From: Candidatus Enterousia sp.
GTDB lineage: Bacteria > Pseudomonadota > Alphaproteobacteria > Rs-D84
DNA: 64,000 nucleotides
NCBI GenBank assembly: GCA_045651525.1
Contig: JAZRSO010000032.1
Coordinates: forward strand, 4,523 to 68,522
Direction: 5' to 3'
Shown here one piece after another: positions 8,380 through 50,779 of the stretch. The translations under genes and the position numbers were made by a program. Within the stretch, counting starts at the first letter, position 1. Every line of letters begins with the position of its first letter. A model generated the notes under the pieces. It was not told the origin of the DNA. It worked only from the letters and a program-made list of their open reading frames with translations, and did no database searches.

Positions 8380-8674
8380 AAATTAAATCTAATAGTATAT
8401 CTACGAACAAACCCGAAACCTCATGTAACTTCTGTACACTACGGTTTCGGGTTTGTGCGTATCTACACTATTATCTTTTATTTTTTTACACTAATCACGG
8501 GTGGTTGGGGCAACTCATGTAACGTTATGTACACTACGCCATTGCCAACCCGTTTATCTATACCATTATCTTTAATTTTTTTACACTAATCACGGGTGGT
8601 TGGGGCACCTCATGTAACTTCTGTACACTACGGTTTCGGGTTTGTGCGTATCTACACTATTATCTTTAATTTTA
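8380..8674 (+). repeat. Three tandem ~100-bp palindromic repeat units (family P), starting right after the stop codon
   Basis: Loops TCATGTAACTTCTGTACACTAC at 8421-8442, 8515-8537 (variant) and 8610-8631. Flanking complementary GC-rich stems and AT-rich terminal inverted repeats AAATTAAA..TAAT / ATTATCTTTAATTT. Confidence 0.9.
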
Positions 8675-8706
8675 TAAAAAAATCCCCTATGTTTGGGGAT
8701 TTTTTA
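8675..8706. terminator. Bidirectional rho-independent terminator between the convergent ligase gene and mnmE
   Basis: A-run, ATCCCC-TATGTTT-GGGGAT hairpin, T-run; overlaps the mnmE stop. Confidence 0.7.
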
Positions 8707-12466: not shown

Positions 12467-12647
12467 TAAAAATAAATTATAATAATTCATCTGTGGGCGG
12501 TCCCGATGGCTCATGTAACTTCTGTACACTACGCCATCTGGACCGTTCCACATTTAAATCATTCTAATTTATTTTTACGCTAGTCACGGTCTATGATAGG
12601 TGCGTATCTAAACCATTATCTTTAATTTCTTCGCTAATTACGTGATG
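12467..12647 (+). repeat. Family P palindromic repeats: one full unit, one loop-less unit and a TCGCTAATTACG tail
   Basis: Loop TCATGTAACTTCTGTACACTAC at 12511-12532 with stems GGCGGTCCCGATGGC / GCCATCTGGACCGTTCC; second unit 12576-12628 lacks the loop. Confidence 0.85.
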
Positions 12648-16809: not shown

Positions 16810-16919
16810 TTTTATAATCCCCCCACTTGTAAAATCTTTTAATAATGCTATATTATCATAAAACAGGGACGCAAGTCCAGACATTAAGGTCGCCACAATT
16901 ACACCAAGGAGAAATTATA

Positions 16920-17345
16920 ATGGCAAAATTTAATATTATATCCCAATTCTTGAAAGACATTTCTTTTGAAAGCCCAAATGTTCCAGAATTGTTCTTTAAA
17001 AACGACAACAGTCCTGCAAAGATGGAAATCAATATTGATTTACAGGTCAAGGGTGCAGAAAACAACTTGTTCATGGTTGACTTGATTGTAAAAGCACATT
17101 CAAAATTGGAAAATGGCGACAAAACAATCTTTTTGATTGAATCAACATATTCTGGCCTGGTTCAAATGGAAGAAGAAAAAGACGAAGAAGCAAAAAAACG
17201 TACATTGTTGATTGATGTTCCAACATTGTTATTCCCAGCTGTTCGTGGCTTGATTACACGTTTGACATCAGAATCAGGATTCCCAACATTCGCGATGCAG
17301 CCTGTGGACTTTGCTGCGTTGTATGCCCAAAAACAGGCAAAATAA
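16920..17345 (+). CDS. secB: Protein-export chaperone SecB
   Basis: FNIISQFLKDISFESPN start region typical of SecB; AAGGAGAAA SD before ATG 16920. Confidence 0.85.
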   Translation: MAKFNIISQFLKDISFESPNVPELFFKNDNSPAKMEINIDLQVKGAENNLFMVDLIVKAHSKLENGDKTIFLIESTYSGLVQMEEEKDEEAKKRTLLIDVPTLLFPAVRGLITRLTSESGFPTFAMQPVDFAALYAQKQAK

Positions 17346-17552
17346 ATTATAATAATTCATCTACGAACGAACCCGAAACCTCATGTAGCATCTGTTCACT
17401 ACGGTTTCGGGTTCGTGCGTATCTAAATCATTCTAATTTATTTTATATATTTGCTGATAATAATTCATCTGTGGACGGTCCCGATGGTTCATGTAGCGTC
17501 TGTACACTACACCATCAGGACCGTTTCACATCTAAATCATTCTAATTTATTT
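17343..17552 (+). repeat. Two tandem family P palindromic repeat units beginning at the secB stop codon
   Basis: Loops TCATGTAGCATCTGTTCACTAC (17381-17402) and TCATGTAGCGTCTGTACACTAC (17489-17510), each with its own complementary GC-rich stems. Confidence 0.9.
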
Positions 17553-17557
17553 TTACG

Positions 17558-17589
17558 CTAATCATGAATTTGTGATTAGTGTTTTTTTA
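17558..17589 (+). terminator. Rho-independent terminator built from the TACGCTAATCA repeat tail
   Basis: CTAATCA-TGAATTTG-TGATTAG hairpin followed by TGTTTTTTT. Confidence 0.6.
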
Positions 17590-17607
17590 TGATATAATAT
17601 TCAAACT

Positions 17608-30465: not shown

Positions 30466-31362
30466 ATGTATGATGTAATTATCTTGGGTTCTGGGCCTGC
30501 GGGTTTGACGGCAGCATTATATGCAGCCCGCGCAAATAAAAAAACAATCGTGTTGGGTGGTGACAGACTGGGTGGTCAAATGGCAGGAATCGCCACATTG
30601 GAAAATTATCCTGGATGGGAAGGCAGTGGTATTGCGCTGGCTGAATTTATGAAAAATCAGGCGGAAACATTTGGTGCGTCTGTTGAATTTGTAAGCGCTA
30701 CAAATGTTTCAAAGAACGCAGATAATGATTTTGTTGTATTGGCTGGCGACAAAGAATATATTGGCAAAACAGTTATCGTTGCCACAGGTGCCAGCCCACG
30801 AAAACTTGAAATTGCCGGCGCGCGTGAATTGATGGGGCGGGGCGTTTCGTACTGTGCGACATGTGATGGATTCTTTTATAGTGGTAAAACAGTTATTGTT
30901 ATGGGGGGCGGAAACAGTGCGTTAAACGATGCTTTGTATCTGGCTGATTTGGCAAAAGAAGTCAAAATCGTGTACCGCAAATCTGAATTCTTTCGTGCCG
31001 AAGCGGTCTTGCGTGAACGTGTGGCAGGGCGTGAAAATATCGAATGCTTGTTTAATACAGACCTGGCAAAAATCGAAGAAAAACCAGATTCCACAGATGG
31101 CGAACTGATTGTTACAACAACATCTGGCGAACAGTTGGTTGTTGATGGTGTGTTCGTTGCAATCGGACACGAAGCCAATACAGACTATCTGTCCGAAGAT
31201 ATTAAACGCGATGCGCTGGGGCGTCTTGCGCCATCTGCATTACCCGCAGGTATGTTTGTTGCCGGTGATGTTCATTCTGATTTGAAAATGCAAATTGCAA
31301 CTGCGGTTGGAACTGGATGTACGGCAGGGATGGATGCAATCGCCTATCTAAATAAATTATAA
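30466..31362 (+). CDS. trxB: Thioredoxin-disulfide reductase
   Basis: GSGPAG FAD motif, redox-active CATCDG, GGGNSA NADPH motif. Confidence 0.93.
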   Translation: MYDVIILGSGPAGLTAALYAARANKKTIVLGGDRLGGQMAGIATLENYPGWEGSGIALAEFMKNQAETFGASVEFVSATNVSKNADNDFVVLAGDKEYIGKTVIVATGASPRKLEIAGARELMGRGVSYCATCDGFFYSGKTVIVMGGGNSALNDALYLADLAKEVKIVYRKSEFFRAEAVLRERVAGRENIECLFNTDLAKIEEKPDSTDGELIVTTTSGEQLVVDGVFVAIGHEANTDYLSEDIKRDALGRLAPSALPAGMFVAGDVHSDLKMQIATAVGTGCTAGMDAIAYLNKL

Positions 31363-31470
31363 ATTAAATCTAATGGTATATCTGCAAGCGGTGCCGGCAA
31401 TTCATGTAGCGTTTGTACACTACATTGCCGGCACTACTTGCATCTAAACCATTATCTTTAATTTCTGCGC
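31360..31470 (+). repeat. Single family P palindromic repeat unit beginning at the trxB stop codon
   Basis: Loop TCATGTAGCGTTTGTACACTAC (31402-31423) with stems GCGGTGCCGGCAAT / ATTGCCGGCACTAC. Confidence 0.9.
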
Positions 31471-31476
31471 TTCCCA

Positions 31477-44652: not shown

Positions 44653-46893
44653 ATGGCAGGGAATAGAAAGTCTAATTTTTTACCAGAACGCATGTCTGGC
44701 GCATTAAAAAGTTTGGCACAGCGCATAATTGGTGCGGGTATTTTTTGTGTCTGTATTTGGGCTGTGATTGCGATGTTGTTTTATAATCCATATCTAGATG
44801 GTGTGGCTGTATCCAGTGGTTTTGGCGGTCAGTCTGTCATGGGATACATTGTTGGTTCTGTGCGTTATGTGGTTGGTGTCATACCTGGATTGTTTTTATT
44901 TTTATCGTTGGCGCGTTGGGGTGCTGCCAAGATGTTTGGTTTTGAATATGAACATTTGCCGGAATATAATTTCTTGCGTGGGTTTATTGCGCTGTGTTTG
45001 GGGGCGGTTGGTTTTGGTTTGATTGCGCCCAGCGCGACATATGGGGGATTGTTTGGTGCGATTGCTGCGACTGATTTGACTTATTTATTGGGTGGCGTGT
45101 CTGTAATTGTTGGTATTTTGTGTATGGTTGGTTTCTTTATTATGGCGGCGATGCTATTGCATGTAAGAATTCAGCATTTACGCTGGGTATATCGTGTTCT
45201 TGTTCGTTGGGTTCGTTGGTTGGCATCTGCGTTTGGTCTGACAAAATACGTTCCACAGCCCGATGAAGAAGAGATAGAAGAAGCCGAAGAAGCAGAAGAA
45301 ACAGAAGAAGAAACAGACGCAGAAGAGGAAAAACCAAAACGTAAACGCAGTTCAAAAAAGGCGGTCACCGCTGTTGCAGTCGCAAAGCCACGCAAACAGG
45401 CGGCGGCATATGAATTGCCAGATACCAGATTCTTGGAACGTTCTAATTTTAGTAAATATTCTGTGACGCCTGAATTAAAGCAAAACGCTCGCAGTATGGA
45501 GGTTAAGTTCTCGCAATACGGTGTTCATGGCAAGGTTGTTGGAATTAAGCCGGGTCCCATTGTTACATTATATGAATTTATGCCAGACGAAGGTACGCGT
45601 ATGGCAGATGTCAATAAAACTGTTACCGATATGACACGTGCGATGGCAACAGAAAGTATTCGTATTGCACATATCCCAAAGACCCAGTTGATTGGTGTTG
45701 AAATGGTAAATCTGAAACGTCAGACTGTGCGCTATCGTGGTCTGATGGAAGACGAAACATTTGTTGAATCAAAATACAAGATTCCATTGGCACTGGGTGT
45801 TGATATTGGCGGAAATCCGATGTATTTTGACTTGGCCAAAATGCCACATATGTTGGTTGCAGGGCGTACTGGGTCTGGTAAGTCTGTATTTGTTCAATCA
45901 ATTATTACATCAATTGTTTATCACTTTACGCCTGATAAATGTAAACTGATAATCATTGACCCAAAGGGTGTTGATTTTGGTTTCTGGGATGATATTCCAC
46001 ATCTTATCACGCCAATTGTAAAACTGGAACCAGAACCGGCGGTAAATGCGCTGAAATGGGCGGTGCGCGAAATGGAAGAAAGATATAAACAGTTACAGGT
46101 ATTAAACGCGCGCAATATTGAAAGTTATAATGAAATTGCGGCACAGAAACGCGAAAGTGGCGAAAAAATTACAAAGCAAGTTGCTGTTGGTACGGACGAG
46201 GAAACAGGCGAACTGCTGTTTGAAACCCAAGAAGTCGATTTGTCTGATATGCCATATATGGTAATCATTATTGACGAGGTGGCCGACCTGATGAGTCTTG
46301 CCCGCAAAGATGTTGAGGCATGTGTTCAACGTATCGCACAAAAGGCACGTGCCGCCGGTATTCACCTGGTTATGGCGACCCAGCGTCCAGATGCAACAAC
46401 CATTACAGGTGTTATCAAGGCGAATTTCCCAACACGTATTTCATTCCAGGCGCGCAGCCGTATCGACAGTGTAACATGCCTGGGCGAAGGCGGGGCAGAA
46501 CAGTTGTTGGCTATGGGCGACATGCTGTTTAGCGAGGCAGGTCGTGTCCCTGTCCGTATCCACGGTGCCTTTATCGACGATAAAGAATTAAAACGCATTG
46601 GGGATTTCTTGCGTTCCCAGGGCGAACCAGAATATGCCGATGGCGTAACAGATTCTGCGGACGCATCTGGTGGTGATGCGATGGGCGGATTTGGTGGTGG
46701 CGGTGGCGACAAAGATGGCGACCTGTACGCACGCGCCAAAGAATGTGTAATTCGTGATAAAAAACCAACAATTTCATACATTCAACGTCGCCTGCAAATT
46801 GGATATAACAAGGCTGCGGGCTTTATGGAACGTATGGAGGCAGATGGTATTGTGTCTGCGCCGGACGCCAACAACAAACGCCACATCCTATAA
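44653..46893 (+). CDS. ftsK: DNA translocase FtsK
   Basis: N-terminal TM helices, acidic linker, Walker A VAGRTGSGKSV, IIDEVADL, gamma domain YIQRRLQIGYNKAAGFMERME. Confidence 0.95.
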   Translation: MAGNRKSNFLPERMSGALKSLAQRIIGAGIFCVCIWAVIAMLFYNPYLDGVAVSSGFGGQSVMGYIVGSVRYVVGVIPGLFLFLSLARWGAAKMFGFEYEHLPEYNFLRGFIALCLGAVGFGLIAPSATYGGLFGAIAATDLTYLLGGVSVIVGILCMVGFFIMAAMLLHVRIQHLRWVYRVLVRWVRWLASAFGLTKYVPQPDEEEIEEAEEAEETEEETDAEEEKPKRKRSSKKAVTAVAVAKPRKQAAAYELPDTRFLERSNFSKYSVTPELKQNARSMEVKFSQYGVHGKVVGIKPGPIVTLYEFMPDEGTRMADVNKTVTDMTRAMATESIRIAHIPKTQLIGVEMVNLKRQTVRYRGLMEDETFVESKYKIPLALGVDIGGNPMYFDLAKMPHMLVAGRTGSGKSVFVQSIITSIVYHFTPDKCKLIIIDPKGVDFGFWDDIPHLITPIVKLEPEPAVNALKWAVREMEERYKQLQVLNARNIESYNEIAAQKRESGEKITKQVAVGTDEETGELLFETQEVDLSDMPYMVIIIDEVADLMSLARKDVEACVQRIAQKARAAGIHLVMATQRPDATTITGVIKANFPTRISFQARSRIDSVTCLGEGGAEQLLAMGDMLFSEAGRVPVRIHGAFIDDKELKRIGDFLRSQGEPEYADGVTDSADASGGDAMGGFGGGGGDKDGDLYARAKECVIRDKKPTISYIQRRLQIGYNKAAGFMERMEADGIVSAPDANNKRHIL

Positions 46894-47108
46894 ATTAAAT
46901 CTAATAATTCATCTACCCGCGGTGCCGGCAATTCATGTAGCGTCTGTACACTACATTGCCGGCACTACATGTATCTAAATTATTATCTTTAATTTCTACG
47001 CTAATCACGGGCAGGGGTGTGAAACCTCATGTAACTTCTGTACACTACGGTTTCGGGTTTGTGCGTATCTACACTATTATCTTTAATTTCTACGCTAATC
47101 ACGGGTGG
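46891..47108 (+). repeat. Two tandem family P palindromic repeat units plus tail, beginning at the ftsK stop codon
   Basis: Loops TCATGTAGCGTCTGTACACTAC (46933-46954) and TCATGTAACTTCTGTACACTAC (47027-47048); tail TACGCTAATCACGGGTGG. Confidence 0.9.
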
Positions 47109-49975: not shown

Positions 49976-50143
49976 GTGTTGTTTCCCCGCCCCCATTGTG
50001 GGGCGGGTCGGAATCGCCGACAATTTATTGTCGCTGTGATTCCGGGGTGGGGGCGAGTGTTCAAGAATAAAATCCCCCCACCCAAGTTTCCGTAATTGCA
50101 TACGCAATAACGTTCACTATCCCGCCCCACACGGGGGCAGGTG
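49976..50143 (+). repeat. GC-rich structured direct repeat, copy 1 (family G)
   Basis: Differs from 50584..50749 by one substitution and one C-run indel by eye. Contains hairpins CCCGCCCC/GGGGCGGG, GGAATC..CGACAAT/ATTGTCG..GATTCC and GGGTGGGGG/CCCCCACCC. Confidence 0.9.
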
Positions 50144-50202
50144 GTAAATGTGCTTGATTTATATTTTTCTTGTTTCATACTTAGCAAAAAGGGTTTCTTG
50201 TA

Positions 50203-50580
50203 ATGAATAATCCAAAAACATTGCGTGCCAGAAATTTGCGACAAAATATGTCTGAGATGGAAAAAAGATTTTGGTATCGGATAAACCGAAATCAGATTGG
50301 GGTAAAGTTTCGCAGGCAACAACCAATTGGACCCTATTTTGTAGATTTTATTTGTTTCCCATTAAAATTGGTGATTGAACTCGATGGAGAACAACATGCG
50401 AAAAATATAGAATACGATAATCGCCGAACTACATATATAGAATCACAAGGATTTAAATTGATACGTATACCGAATTCATGGCTGATTGGAAACGGTATTG
50501 ATGACGTTGTGTTTTCATTACAACGTTGCATAAATGAAGATATTGATATTCATGAATATTTTATGTCCAAGTATCAGTAA
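50203..50580 (+). CDS. DUF559 (Vsr-like endonuclease fold) domain protein
   Basis: ARNLRQNMSEMEKRFWYRI...GVKFRRQQPIGPYFVDFICFPLKLVIELDGEQH...GFKLIRIPN matches the DUF559 pattern. Confidence 0.8.
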   Translation: MNNPKTLRARNLRQNMSEMEKRFWYRINRNQIGVKFRRQQPIGPYFVDFICFPLKLVIELDGEQHAKNIEYDNRRTTYIESQGFKLIRIPNSWLIGNGIDDVVFSLQRCINEDIDIHEYFMSKYQ

Positions 50581-50583
50581 ATA

Positions 50584-50749
50584 GTGTTTTCCCCGCCCAC
50601 ATTGTGGGGCGGGTCGGAATCGCCGACAATTTATTGTCGCTGTGATTCCGGGGTGGGGGCGAGTGTTCAAGAATAAAATCCCCCCCACCCAAGTTTCCGT
50701 AATTGCATACGCAATAACGTTCACTATCCCGCCCCACACGGGGGCAGGG
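50584..50749 (+). repeat. GC-rich structured direct repeat, copy 2 (family G)
   Basis: Same orientation as, and near-identical to, 49976..50143. Confidence 0.9.
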
Positions 50750-50779
50750 GGGCTTCGCAAAATGGGAACGTGGGAATTT

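Follow-up and report, generated by a model that had tools for sequence, protein, structure and literature searches.

What is inherited in the repeats that stand behind secB in this genome, a sequence or a fold? The window, by which we mean the whole 64,000-nucleotide (64-kb) stretch of Candidatus Enterousia DNA that was analysed, holds several copies of an imperfect palindrome, family P, and two of them follow secB one after the other. An initial annotation observed that these two differ from copies elsewhere in the window by two double substitutions, each of which changes both partners of a stem pair and leaves the pair intact, and claimed that pairing rather than sequence is preserved in the inner stems, through selection or a copying mechanism that acts on folded RNA or ssDNA. 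The features needed to follow the comparison are these.

16845..17345, + strand: secB (Pfam SecB, E 2e-33; ORF list), whose TAA stop codon at 17343-17345 lies within the 5' outer arm of unit 1.
17340..17358, + strand: head of unit 1 (AAATAAATTATAATAATTC, AT-rich), which forms the outer helix on its 5' side and pairs with 17425-17444 in the folds.
17359..17362, + strand: left ATCT box of unit 1, forming an internal loop with the right box.
17363..17380, + strand: left arm of the 18-bp inner helix of unit 1, holding G17369.
17381..17402, + strand: apical module of unit 1 (T followed by CATGTAGCATCTGTTCACTAC), placed by the loop pattern and the alignment.
17403..17420, + strand: right arm of the inner helix of unit 1, holding C17414.
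17421..17444, + strand: right ATCT box of unit 1 (17421-17424) and tail, the latter being the 3' arm of the outer helix (AAATCATTCTAATTTATTTT), placed by the alignment and the folds.
17456..17554, + strand: unit 2, covariance-model match C32:21965-22079 at 92.9 bits.
Unit 2, left parts, + strand: short head 17456-17466, ATCT box 17467-17470, left arm 17471-17488 (holding T17488).
Unit 2, right parts, + strand: apical module 17489-17510, right arm 17511-17529 (holding A17511, with one bulge), ATCT box 17530-17533, tail 17534-17554.
17555..17589, + strand: terminator-like hairpin, in which linker module ACGCTAATCA pairs with its inverted copy TGATTAGTGT, followed by T7.
8380..8674, + strand: comparison locus for the first double change, a complete unit (arms 8403-8420 and 8443-8460) and then two linker-type units with degenerate left arms.
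12467..12582, + strand: comparison locus for the second double change, a complete unit behind yebC whose left arm ends at 12510 and whose right arm begins at 12533.
31358..31471, + strand: complete unit behind a thioredoxin-reductase-like gene, retained at the orthologous site in a species of about 78% DNA identity.
46889..47103, + strand: array behind ftsK, one complete unit and one linker-type unit.

The first double change replaces A8409/T8454 with G17369/C17414, which occupy facing positions in the hairpin (the arms of the copy at 8.4 kb follow the register i + j = 16863). The second replaces C12510/G12533, the pair that closes the loop, with T17488/A17511. All four stretches quoted for these changes match the window letter for letter at the coordinates given for them. 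The same copies also carry uncompensated changes, such as C.T at 12504/12539 and C.A at 17482/17517. Across genomes the first pair is A-T in three units and G-C in three, with no intermediate in the sample; the second is C-G in three units, C.A in four and T-A in three. Both double changes are subfamily polymorphisms common to other species and not fresh events in this genome.

The comparison extends well beyond the window, for 196 distinct units were collected from the same genome (1.05 Mb, 39 contigs) and from 118 loop-bearing loci of other genomes, all of the latter belonging to Candidatus Enterousia or to gut Alphaproteobacteria MAGs. A family P unit is a rod-shaped foldback repeat of about 110 nt. 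A complete one consists, in order, of an AT-rich head of about 22 nt, ATCT, a first 18-mer, T, CATGTARCNTYTGTACACTAC, a second 18-mer, ATCT and a tail that is again AT-rich and about 22 nt long, and the consensus ends are TAAAAATAAATT ... AATTTATTTTTA. Head and tail form the outer helix, which is AT-rich and about 20 bp long, and the 18-mers form a GC-rich inner helix; 69 of 111 units have arms of 18(+T)/18, and 40 others contain one bulged base. The ATCT boxes, invariant in 56/56 aligned units, are direct copies rather than complements of each other and therefore meet as an internal loop, in which the facing bases are A-U, U.C, C.U and U-A on the + strand and A-U, G.A, A.G and U-A on the − strand. 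Arrays follow a simple grammar: a complete unit comes first, followed by more complete units or by linker-type units, in which the head and most of the left arm give way to a linker, of CGCTAATCA type or GCAAGGGG type, and to a stretch rich in G. Linker-type units are common (51/196). The 21-nt loop pattern finds eight matches in the 64-kb window, all on the + strand, where shuffled sequence predicts none.

Compensation in the inner helix is pervasive. A MAFFT alignment of 56 diverse units shows both-side changes at all 18 inner-helix pairs, and as many as four Watson-Crick pair types occur at one position; 93.5% of the cells are paired, a share that falls to 35-46% if the partners are slid by 1-3 columns. 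Sliding also lowers the covariation score, from 0.499 to 0.08-0.11; none of 500 shuffles reaches any of the four measures used, and RNAalifold recovers the inner helix independently. In the outer helix, both-side changes occur at 15 of 20 pairs. When events are counted on the edges of a minimum spanning tree over units rather than per sequence, the inner helix of the 69 fixed-register units has 110 compensated double changes where slid pairing gives 2-4, and the close edges (at most 12 differences) yield 34 against 0-1. The 109 complete units, joined by 108 edges, yield 163 double changes from one Watson-Crick pair to another. Covariation over many copies, on which the claim of preserved pairing depends, is thus far above chance, and the claim holds across the genus. 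The alignments show inner-helix pairing maintained by compensatory change, with a free sequence and a fixed length.

Comparison between species leads to the same picture. A syntenic species of about 78% DNA identity has units at three of the window's loci: two carry different stem classes and head types, and the third keeps the same core with a compensated stem foot. The loop and the boxes are identical at all three; the stems differ or are compensated, as where GCAAG/CTTGC has become AAAAG/CTTTT. The orthologous sites show fixed motifs staying identical between species whose neutral sites are saturated.

Paired change could also arise by copying without selection, if fold-back or template switching, of the kind known from quasipalindrome correction, periodically rebuilt one arm on the template of the other. 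Such a process would agree with the strand-neutral mismatch spectrum of the inner helix (given below), with the active DNA-level turnover seen in arrays, duplications and chimeras, and with the first double change, both of whose paired states occur with no intermediate in the sample. It agrees poorly with the second, whose C.A intermediate is found in four units from several genomes, and with a G.T and C.A doublet that the ATTGCCGGCAC class has retained across many species. Units with unpaired arms have been left uncorrected, and the ATCT/ATCT boxes and the asymmetric flanks of the apex are non-complementary in every copy, which counts against copying because a blind process would erase them. 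We consider copying without selection highly improbable. Selection fits the alignments better than automatic copying, given that mismatched intermediates have survived in several species and that some units have arms that do not pair.

The loop is the part of the hairpin that was described at the outset as nearly invariant, and this description needs to be divided. Inside the "loop" is an apical helix of 4-7 bp, flanked by fixed bases, that covaries in diverged members. These members were reached with a covariance model built from the unit alignment and searched in the same genome and its relatives. The model finds 18 complete units in the genome, one on contig C20 with a different apex, and it also matches genomes that lack the exact loop, in other Enterousia species and in sister genera of the same family, with 25 matches in one genome. 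In these members the apex has changed in a compensated way: CATGTA...TACACT is replaced by CGTGTA...TACACG or by CGCGTA...TACGCG, and a C-G, G-C or U-A pair stands in place of the topmost G.G. The closing pairs of the internal loop beside the inner helix covary in places, but on the + strand this loop keeps its 2x2 pyrimidine-pyrimidine form. Unit 1 behind secB has itself lost one apical-helix pair, since TGTTCAC replaces TGTACAC in its loop (17382-17402).

The placement of the units is strict. Among 101 units that come first in their array, 99 have a head that contains the stop codon of an ORF of 80 codons or more. The stop codon is TAA in 96 of these 99; it precedes the ATCT box by 8-30 nt and occurs in all three frames. 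The upstream genes in the window are housekeeping genes: an acyl-CoA-synthetase-like gene, yebC, secB, a thioredoxin-reductase-like gene and ftsK. All 25 loop-bearing units of the genome (25/25) lie on the + strand of five contigs whose GC skew is +0.09 to +0.18 and which hold 191 plus-strand and 99 minus-strand genes; the C20 unit, on the minus strand, adjoins a stretch of negative skew. In other genomes the element strand is G-rich at 96 of 98 loci, with a mean skew of +0.17, and copies within one contig all point the same way on contigs of 150-240 kb, a uniformity seen up to 243 kb. Gene ends and skew together show units docking on the stop codon of a co-oriented gene, almost only on what the skew marks as the leading-strand side. 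With downstream gene orientation taken from greedy gene calls, no enrichment of units was found at convergent gene junctions (3/12 versus 57/231), and the idea of a terminator against convergent read-through was rejected.

The two strands of a unit do not fold equally well. The antisense strand is the more stable in 108 of 109 complete units, with mean folds of −52.0 versus −40.7 kcal/mol under RNA parameters and −29.3 versus −24.8 kcal/mol under DNA parameters, and the advantage extends to 23 of 25 diverged units. Its source is a set of fixed A.C and C.A mismatches on the sense strand, which are G.U on the other; the ATCT/ATCT boxes likewise become AGAU/AGAU on the antisense strand and can form A-U, G.A, A.G and U-A. 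The alignment contains 138 wobble cells on the antisense strand and 46 on the sense strand. Most of the antisense advantage comes from a few conserved positions, namely 1, 3 and 5 of the outer helix, the two ATCT boxes and a single apical C.A. Since this asymmetry sits in the slow-changing outer and apical parts, it represents few independent events. Single-side events in the inner helix are strand-neutral (33 G.T and 40 A.C on the sense strand, p = 0.48), whereas those in the outer helix are not (33 G.T versus 96 A.C, p = 3e-8).

A control from the same genome gives these counts their meaning. A sense-strand excess of G.U is the expected signature of RNA terminators, and hairpins that follow stop codons within 70 nt in this genome, collected by a rule that treats both transition mismatches alike, have it: 100 G.T against 41 A.C on the sense strand (p = 7e-7). 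Family P differs from these ordinary terminators with Fisher p values of 0.005 to 5e-14 (0.0003 beside the inner and 5e-14 beside the outer counts). Its stems are, by this measure of the alignments, under structural selection, but of a kind unlike that of this genome's mRNA hairpins. Mutation bias behind the sense-strand A.C excess of the outer helix was rejected by reasoning from established strand asymmetry: the leading strand is enriched in G and T, and a G/T-rich strand predicts the opposite, G.T on the sense strand.

These results bear directly on the most familiar reading of such a hairpin, that of a sense-RNA element in the 3' UTR, acting as an intrinsic terminator or as a barrier to 3' exonucleases and keeping its pairing through selection on the mRNA fold. 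Each unit is certainly transcribed within the upstream mRNA, for the rod begins on the stop codon and is hence always co-transcribed. Although less stable than the antisense fold in 108 of 109 units, the sense fold remains strong, at −31 to −45 kcal/mol with z −4 to −10, and the flanks of a unit are A-rich on the 5' side and T-rich on the 3' side. In the latter, however, the T-run is separated from the GC-rich inner helix by ATCT and about 20 AT-rich outer-helix bases, a gap of about 24 nt. The rule for intrinsic terminators, a GC-rich stem with a U-run directly after it, describes only the hairpin at 17555-17589, which lies behind the two units. This hairpin had been proposed as a canonical terminator built from the TACGCTAATCA tail module, and terminator scan and folding in silico agree, predicting a stem of 11-12 bp (ACGCTAATCAT / GTGATTAGTGT) with a dG of −12.3 kcal/mol and T7 after it. 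It is also present in the nearest relative, L121, and it is overlapped by a promoter-like site of the next gene (17570-17598).

Occupied and unoccupied sites divide on the same reading. Five of 30 genomes carry the element behind secB, and those without it have an ordinary terminator directly after the same ...GCAAAATAA end, which favours the sense-RNA reading; several arrays, too, run straight into the promoter of the next gene with no other terminator. All four informative element-bearing secB loci (4/4) nonetheless retain a separate canonical terminator behind the element, as do units in the window (8677-8705 and 17555-17582). The sense-RNA reading also leaves the absence of units behind lagging-strand genes unexplained, and the G.U excess of the genome's own terminators is missing from family P. 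It is an unlikely account of the family.

The better fold of the opposite strand allows the rod to be placed in antisense RNA instead, where it would fold in opposite-strand transcripts and halt polymerases that enter leading-strand genes head-on to replication. The leading-strand restriction would follow, as antisense transcription is head-on only there. The G.U wobbles, the AGAU/AGAU box with its possible tandem G.A and the U-run that follows the rod on the antisense strand as well are all in keeping with such a role, but the inner helix has no antisense wobble bias (33 versus 40), units are not enriched at convergent junctions, and inspection of the linker, by eye only, found no convincing conserved antisense promoter. 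The common linker-type units, with most of their left-arm pairing gone, would be useless in this role. An antisense-RNA element is accordingly rated as very unlikely, and handling at the level of DNA, with the bottom strand folding best, appears somewhat more likely than a role in sense mRNA because of the replication polarity, the missing sense wobble signature and the shuffling of modules.

This shuffling is visible wherever related loci can be compared. The nearest relative (96% SecB identity) has two units behind secB in a different order, and its second unit is a chimera with the left arm of one class and the right arm of another. The arms are unpaired in 7 of 122 two-box units, and some such arms recur in paired units elsewhere. 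Chimeras with recurring arms locate the crossovers in the conserved apex and linkers, and the sequences show arms, heads and tails that have been reshuffled between units by crossovers in conserved segments. Of 108 species sampled in the genus, 54 carry the exact loop, in 1-27 copies; it is absent from 43 genomes of 21 other genera of the order Rs-D84, some of which the covariance model reaches. With half of the species and 25 of 30 secB loci lacking it, the element is dispensable and patchy.

The best overall explanation, to which we give slightly better than even chances, is that the two double changes are samples of pervasive compensatory evolution in a lineage-specific rod repeat of Enterousia and its sister genera (Rs-D84). 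On our reading, family P would be a repeat that recombines and is selected for its structure, with a putative factor reading it in the form of DNA or, possibly, of antisense RNA. This trans-acting factor would read the fold by measuring the spacing between the fixed motifs, and the free 18-bp helix would serve as a spacer of fixed length between them; such a requirement would impose selection for pairing. The folded molecule is more probably DNA, as a hairpin or cruciform in which the antisense or bottom strand folds best, than sense mRNA. The one-way orientation would reflect which strand replication exposes, and the family may persist as a semi-selfish recombining repeat.

Covariation alone does not equal a functional RNA. 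Within one genome, terminators carry the sense wobble signature and the equally covarying family P does not, and this contrast gives a practical way, using sequence only, to separate structural selection on RNA from structural selection on DNA. It matters for annotation, since pipelines would otherwise label the units terminators or small RNAs. The overlap with the stop codon, the single replication orientation, the free 18-bp spacer and the lack of a transposase together suggest a new mechanism of copying or reading hairpins in very small genomes, those of the tiny gut bacteria Candidatus Enterousia.

Comparison with known systems begins with machinery. A RAYT/Y1 HUH transposase (Pfam PF01797) is absent from the genome (0 hits; 96% complete; control genomes positive) and present in 1 of 111 genomes of the genus, which rules out membership in a REP-RAYT system. 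The integron integrase (TIGR02249 / NF011946) is likewise absent from the genome, where TIGR02249 scores 117 bits at best (cut-off 265) and the tyrosine recombinases are XerC-like, XerD-like and two of phage type; membership among attC sites was accordingly rejected, and the alignment consensus contains no RYYYAAC / GTTRRRY core sites. The 64-kb window has no Rfam match at the gathering threshold. The best sub-threshold matches are lactis-plasmid (RF01742), at 33.3 bits against 70 and dismissed as generic hairpin similarity, and generic miRNA-precursor hairpins. A phage origin was rejected on the absence of the loop pattern from 2.9 million viral contigs. As for an autonomous parent, the genome holds no larger element bracketed by head and tail motifs, and the unit junctions, where a target-site duplication would lie, are A/T runs. 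No published description of family P was found, and the Enterousia genome description (PMC12306168) does not mention repeats, palindromes or hairpins.

Family P resembles REP, BIME and REPIN sequences in consisting of dispersed and tandem extragenic palindromes, in forming mosaic arrays of a few modules whose hairpin fold matters, in carrying a GTAG...CTAC motif and in having copies between a stop codon and a terminator. The differences are substantial. The stems of family P are variable and its apex conserved, the reverse of REPs, and its GTAG lies in the apical module and not at the 5' foot. Units of about 110 nt in about 18-25 copies compare with 20-40 nt and hundreds, and their placement is strict, with stop-codon docking and replication polarity. 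Families of the ERIC/IRU and SPRITE type are closer in size (imperfect palindromes of about 100-130 bp), share the rod-like foldback and the position in 3' untranslated parts of operons, have no known transposase of their own and differ in copy number among relatives. They are defined, however, by conserved stem sequence, which sets family P apart by description, and we know of no report in these families of free fixed-length stems combined with stop-codon overlap and one-way replication polarity. The SPRITE-type comparison includes terminator-like repeats of pneumococcus (PMC3049150). Rickettsia palindromic elements (RPE) insert in frame inside ORFs, whereas the ORFs that meet family P end within the first 30 nt of the unit.

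Other systems share the strandedness of family P. Palindrome-associated elements derived from IS200/IS605 have strand-specific hairpins and a replication orientation bias; family P has neither a Y1 transposase nor a subterminal hairpin pair. The active strand of IS608 folds on the lagging-strand template, and the better-folding strand of family P is on the leading-strand template. The ssoA single-strand origins of rolling-circle plasmids are long imperfect palindromes that, like family P, work in one strand only, and their CS-6 sequence, TAGCGT, lies in the terminal loop (PMC4598088). About half of the family P units also have TAGCGT in their apical loop, on the strand that is the lagging-strand template; the other half have TAACTT. 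Family P has no RSB-like box, is chromosomal and sits at stop codons, and its TAGCGT strand is the worse-folding one; the match of six bases may be due to chance.

Integron attC sites offer the nearest mechanistic parallel. In both, structure is kept and sequence is free, the element lies behind an ORF in the orientation of that ORF, the bottom strand folds better, in family P through few independent positions, and unpaired bases occur at fixed places. In chromosomal integrons the attC bottom strand is on the leading-strand template. Unlike attC sites, family P has no cassette array or attI, and its upstream genes are housekeeping genes in conserved synteny. The parallel raises the idea, which we regard as doubtful, that family P is one instance of a wider class of strand-specific hairpins that dock on leading-strand stop codons and are handled as ssDNA by a candidate enzyme or a housekeeping one (for example a Xer-type recombinase). 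This would amount to attC-like recombination outside integrons, with the bottom-strand rod, its tandem G.A box and its fixed apex as the substrate. Each family tested fails a defining feature; the closest kinds are the REP/BIME/REPIN and ERIC-type repeats, and the mechanistically closest is the integron attC site.

Repeats of family P, foldback rods of about 110 nt, occur in tandem behind secB in the nearest relative as well as in the window. This relative (locus L121, G175:C34) carries the same two-unit locus downstream of secB with its units in altered order, and one of the two is chimeric, joining a left arm of the ATTGCCGGCAC class to a right arm of the GGTTTCGGG class. In the element-free genomes among the secB orthologues L122-L149, the terminator A-run begins at the stop codon itself (TAAAAAAACCGCC...), a context that the first bases of the element (TAAAAATAAATT) mimic. 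Because A/T runs lie on both sides, insertion junctions at the secB loci are unreadable. Among 111 genomes of the genus, a single Y1 (IS200/RAYT-type) transposase was found (G166:C6:33971-34330, E 6e-35), and the genome that encodes it has no unit behind secB (locus L123).

The apical module lies between the arms of the inner helix. At window positions 17382-17402, in the first unit behind secB, it reads CATGTAGCATCTGTTCACTAC. Its TGTTCAC places a T where an A pairs within the apical helix, a variant found in this copy alone (1 of 196 units from the window's genome and other genomes). With this pairing base lost, the unit may be decaying. The same genome holds a diverged unit elsewhere:

C20:2176-2289, minus strand, flanked by rpsR-like and rplI-like genes

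Its apex is CATGTATGCTTAATACACTAC, and the uppermost position of the apical helix is U-A instead of G.G.

The distribution of units within the window's genome was set against contig skew for contigs C1, C2, C7, C19, C29, C33, C37, and C39. GC skew, as deposited, is positive in 5/5 element-bearing contigs, and no unit lies on either strand of the ~240 kb of negative-skew contigs. This restriction could be an accident of how the contigs happen to be oriented (1 in 16); alternatively, the family may occupy a limited part of the chromosome. The window also holds two near-identical GC-rich direct repeats amid AT-rich surroundings (families D7 and D8, 49982-50751; 99% identical over 98 nt and 96% identical over 76 nt), spaced 606-607 nt apart.

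On the minus strand, 17322-17446 aligns full-length with the Rfam family lactis-plasmid (RF01742) at a sub-threshold 33.3 bits, the gathering score being 70. The alignment places the GAAa/GaAa internal loops of that family on the AGAU boxes; this is probably generic hairpin similarity. Roughly half of the units contain TAGCGT in their apical loop (for example 17494-17499, 31407-31412, and 46938-46943), the remaining half having TAACTT, and the strand bearing TAGCGT is the lagging-strand template. TAGCGT is, possibly by coincidence, identical to the CS-6 consensus that rolling-circle plasmids carry in their ssoA single-strand origins (PMC4598088).
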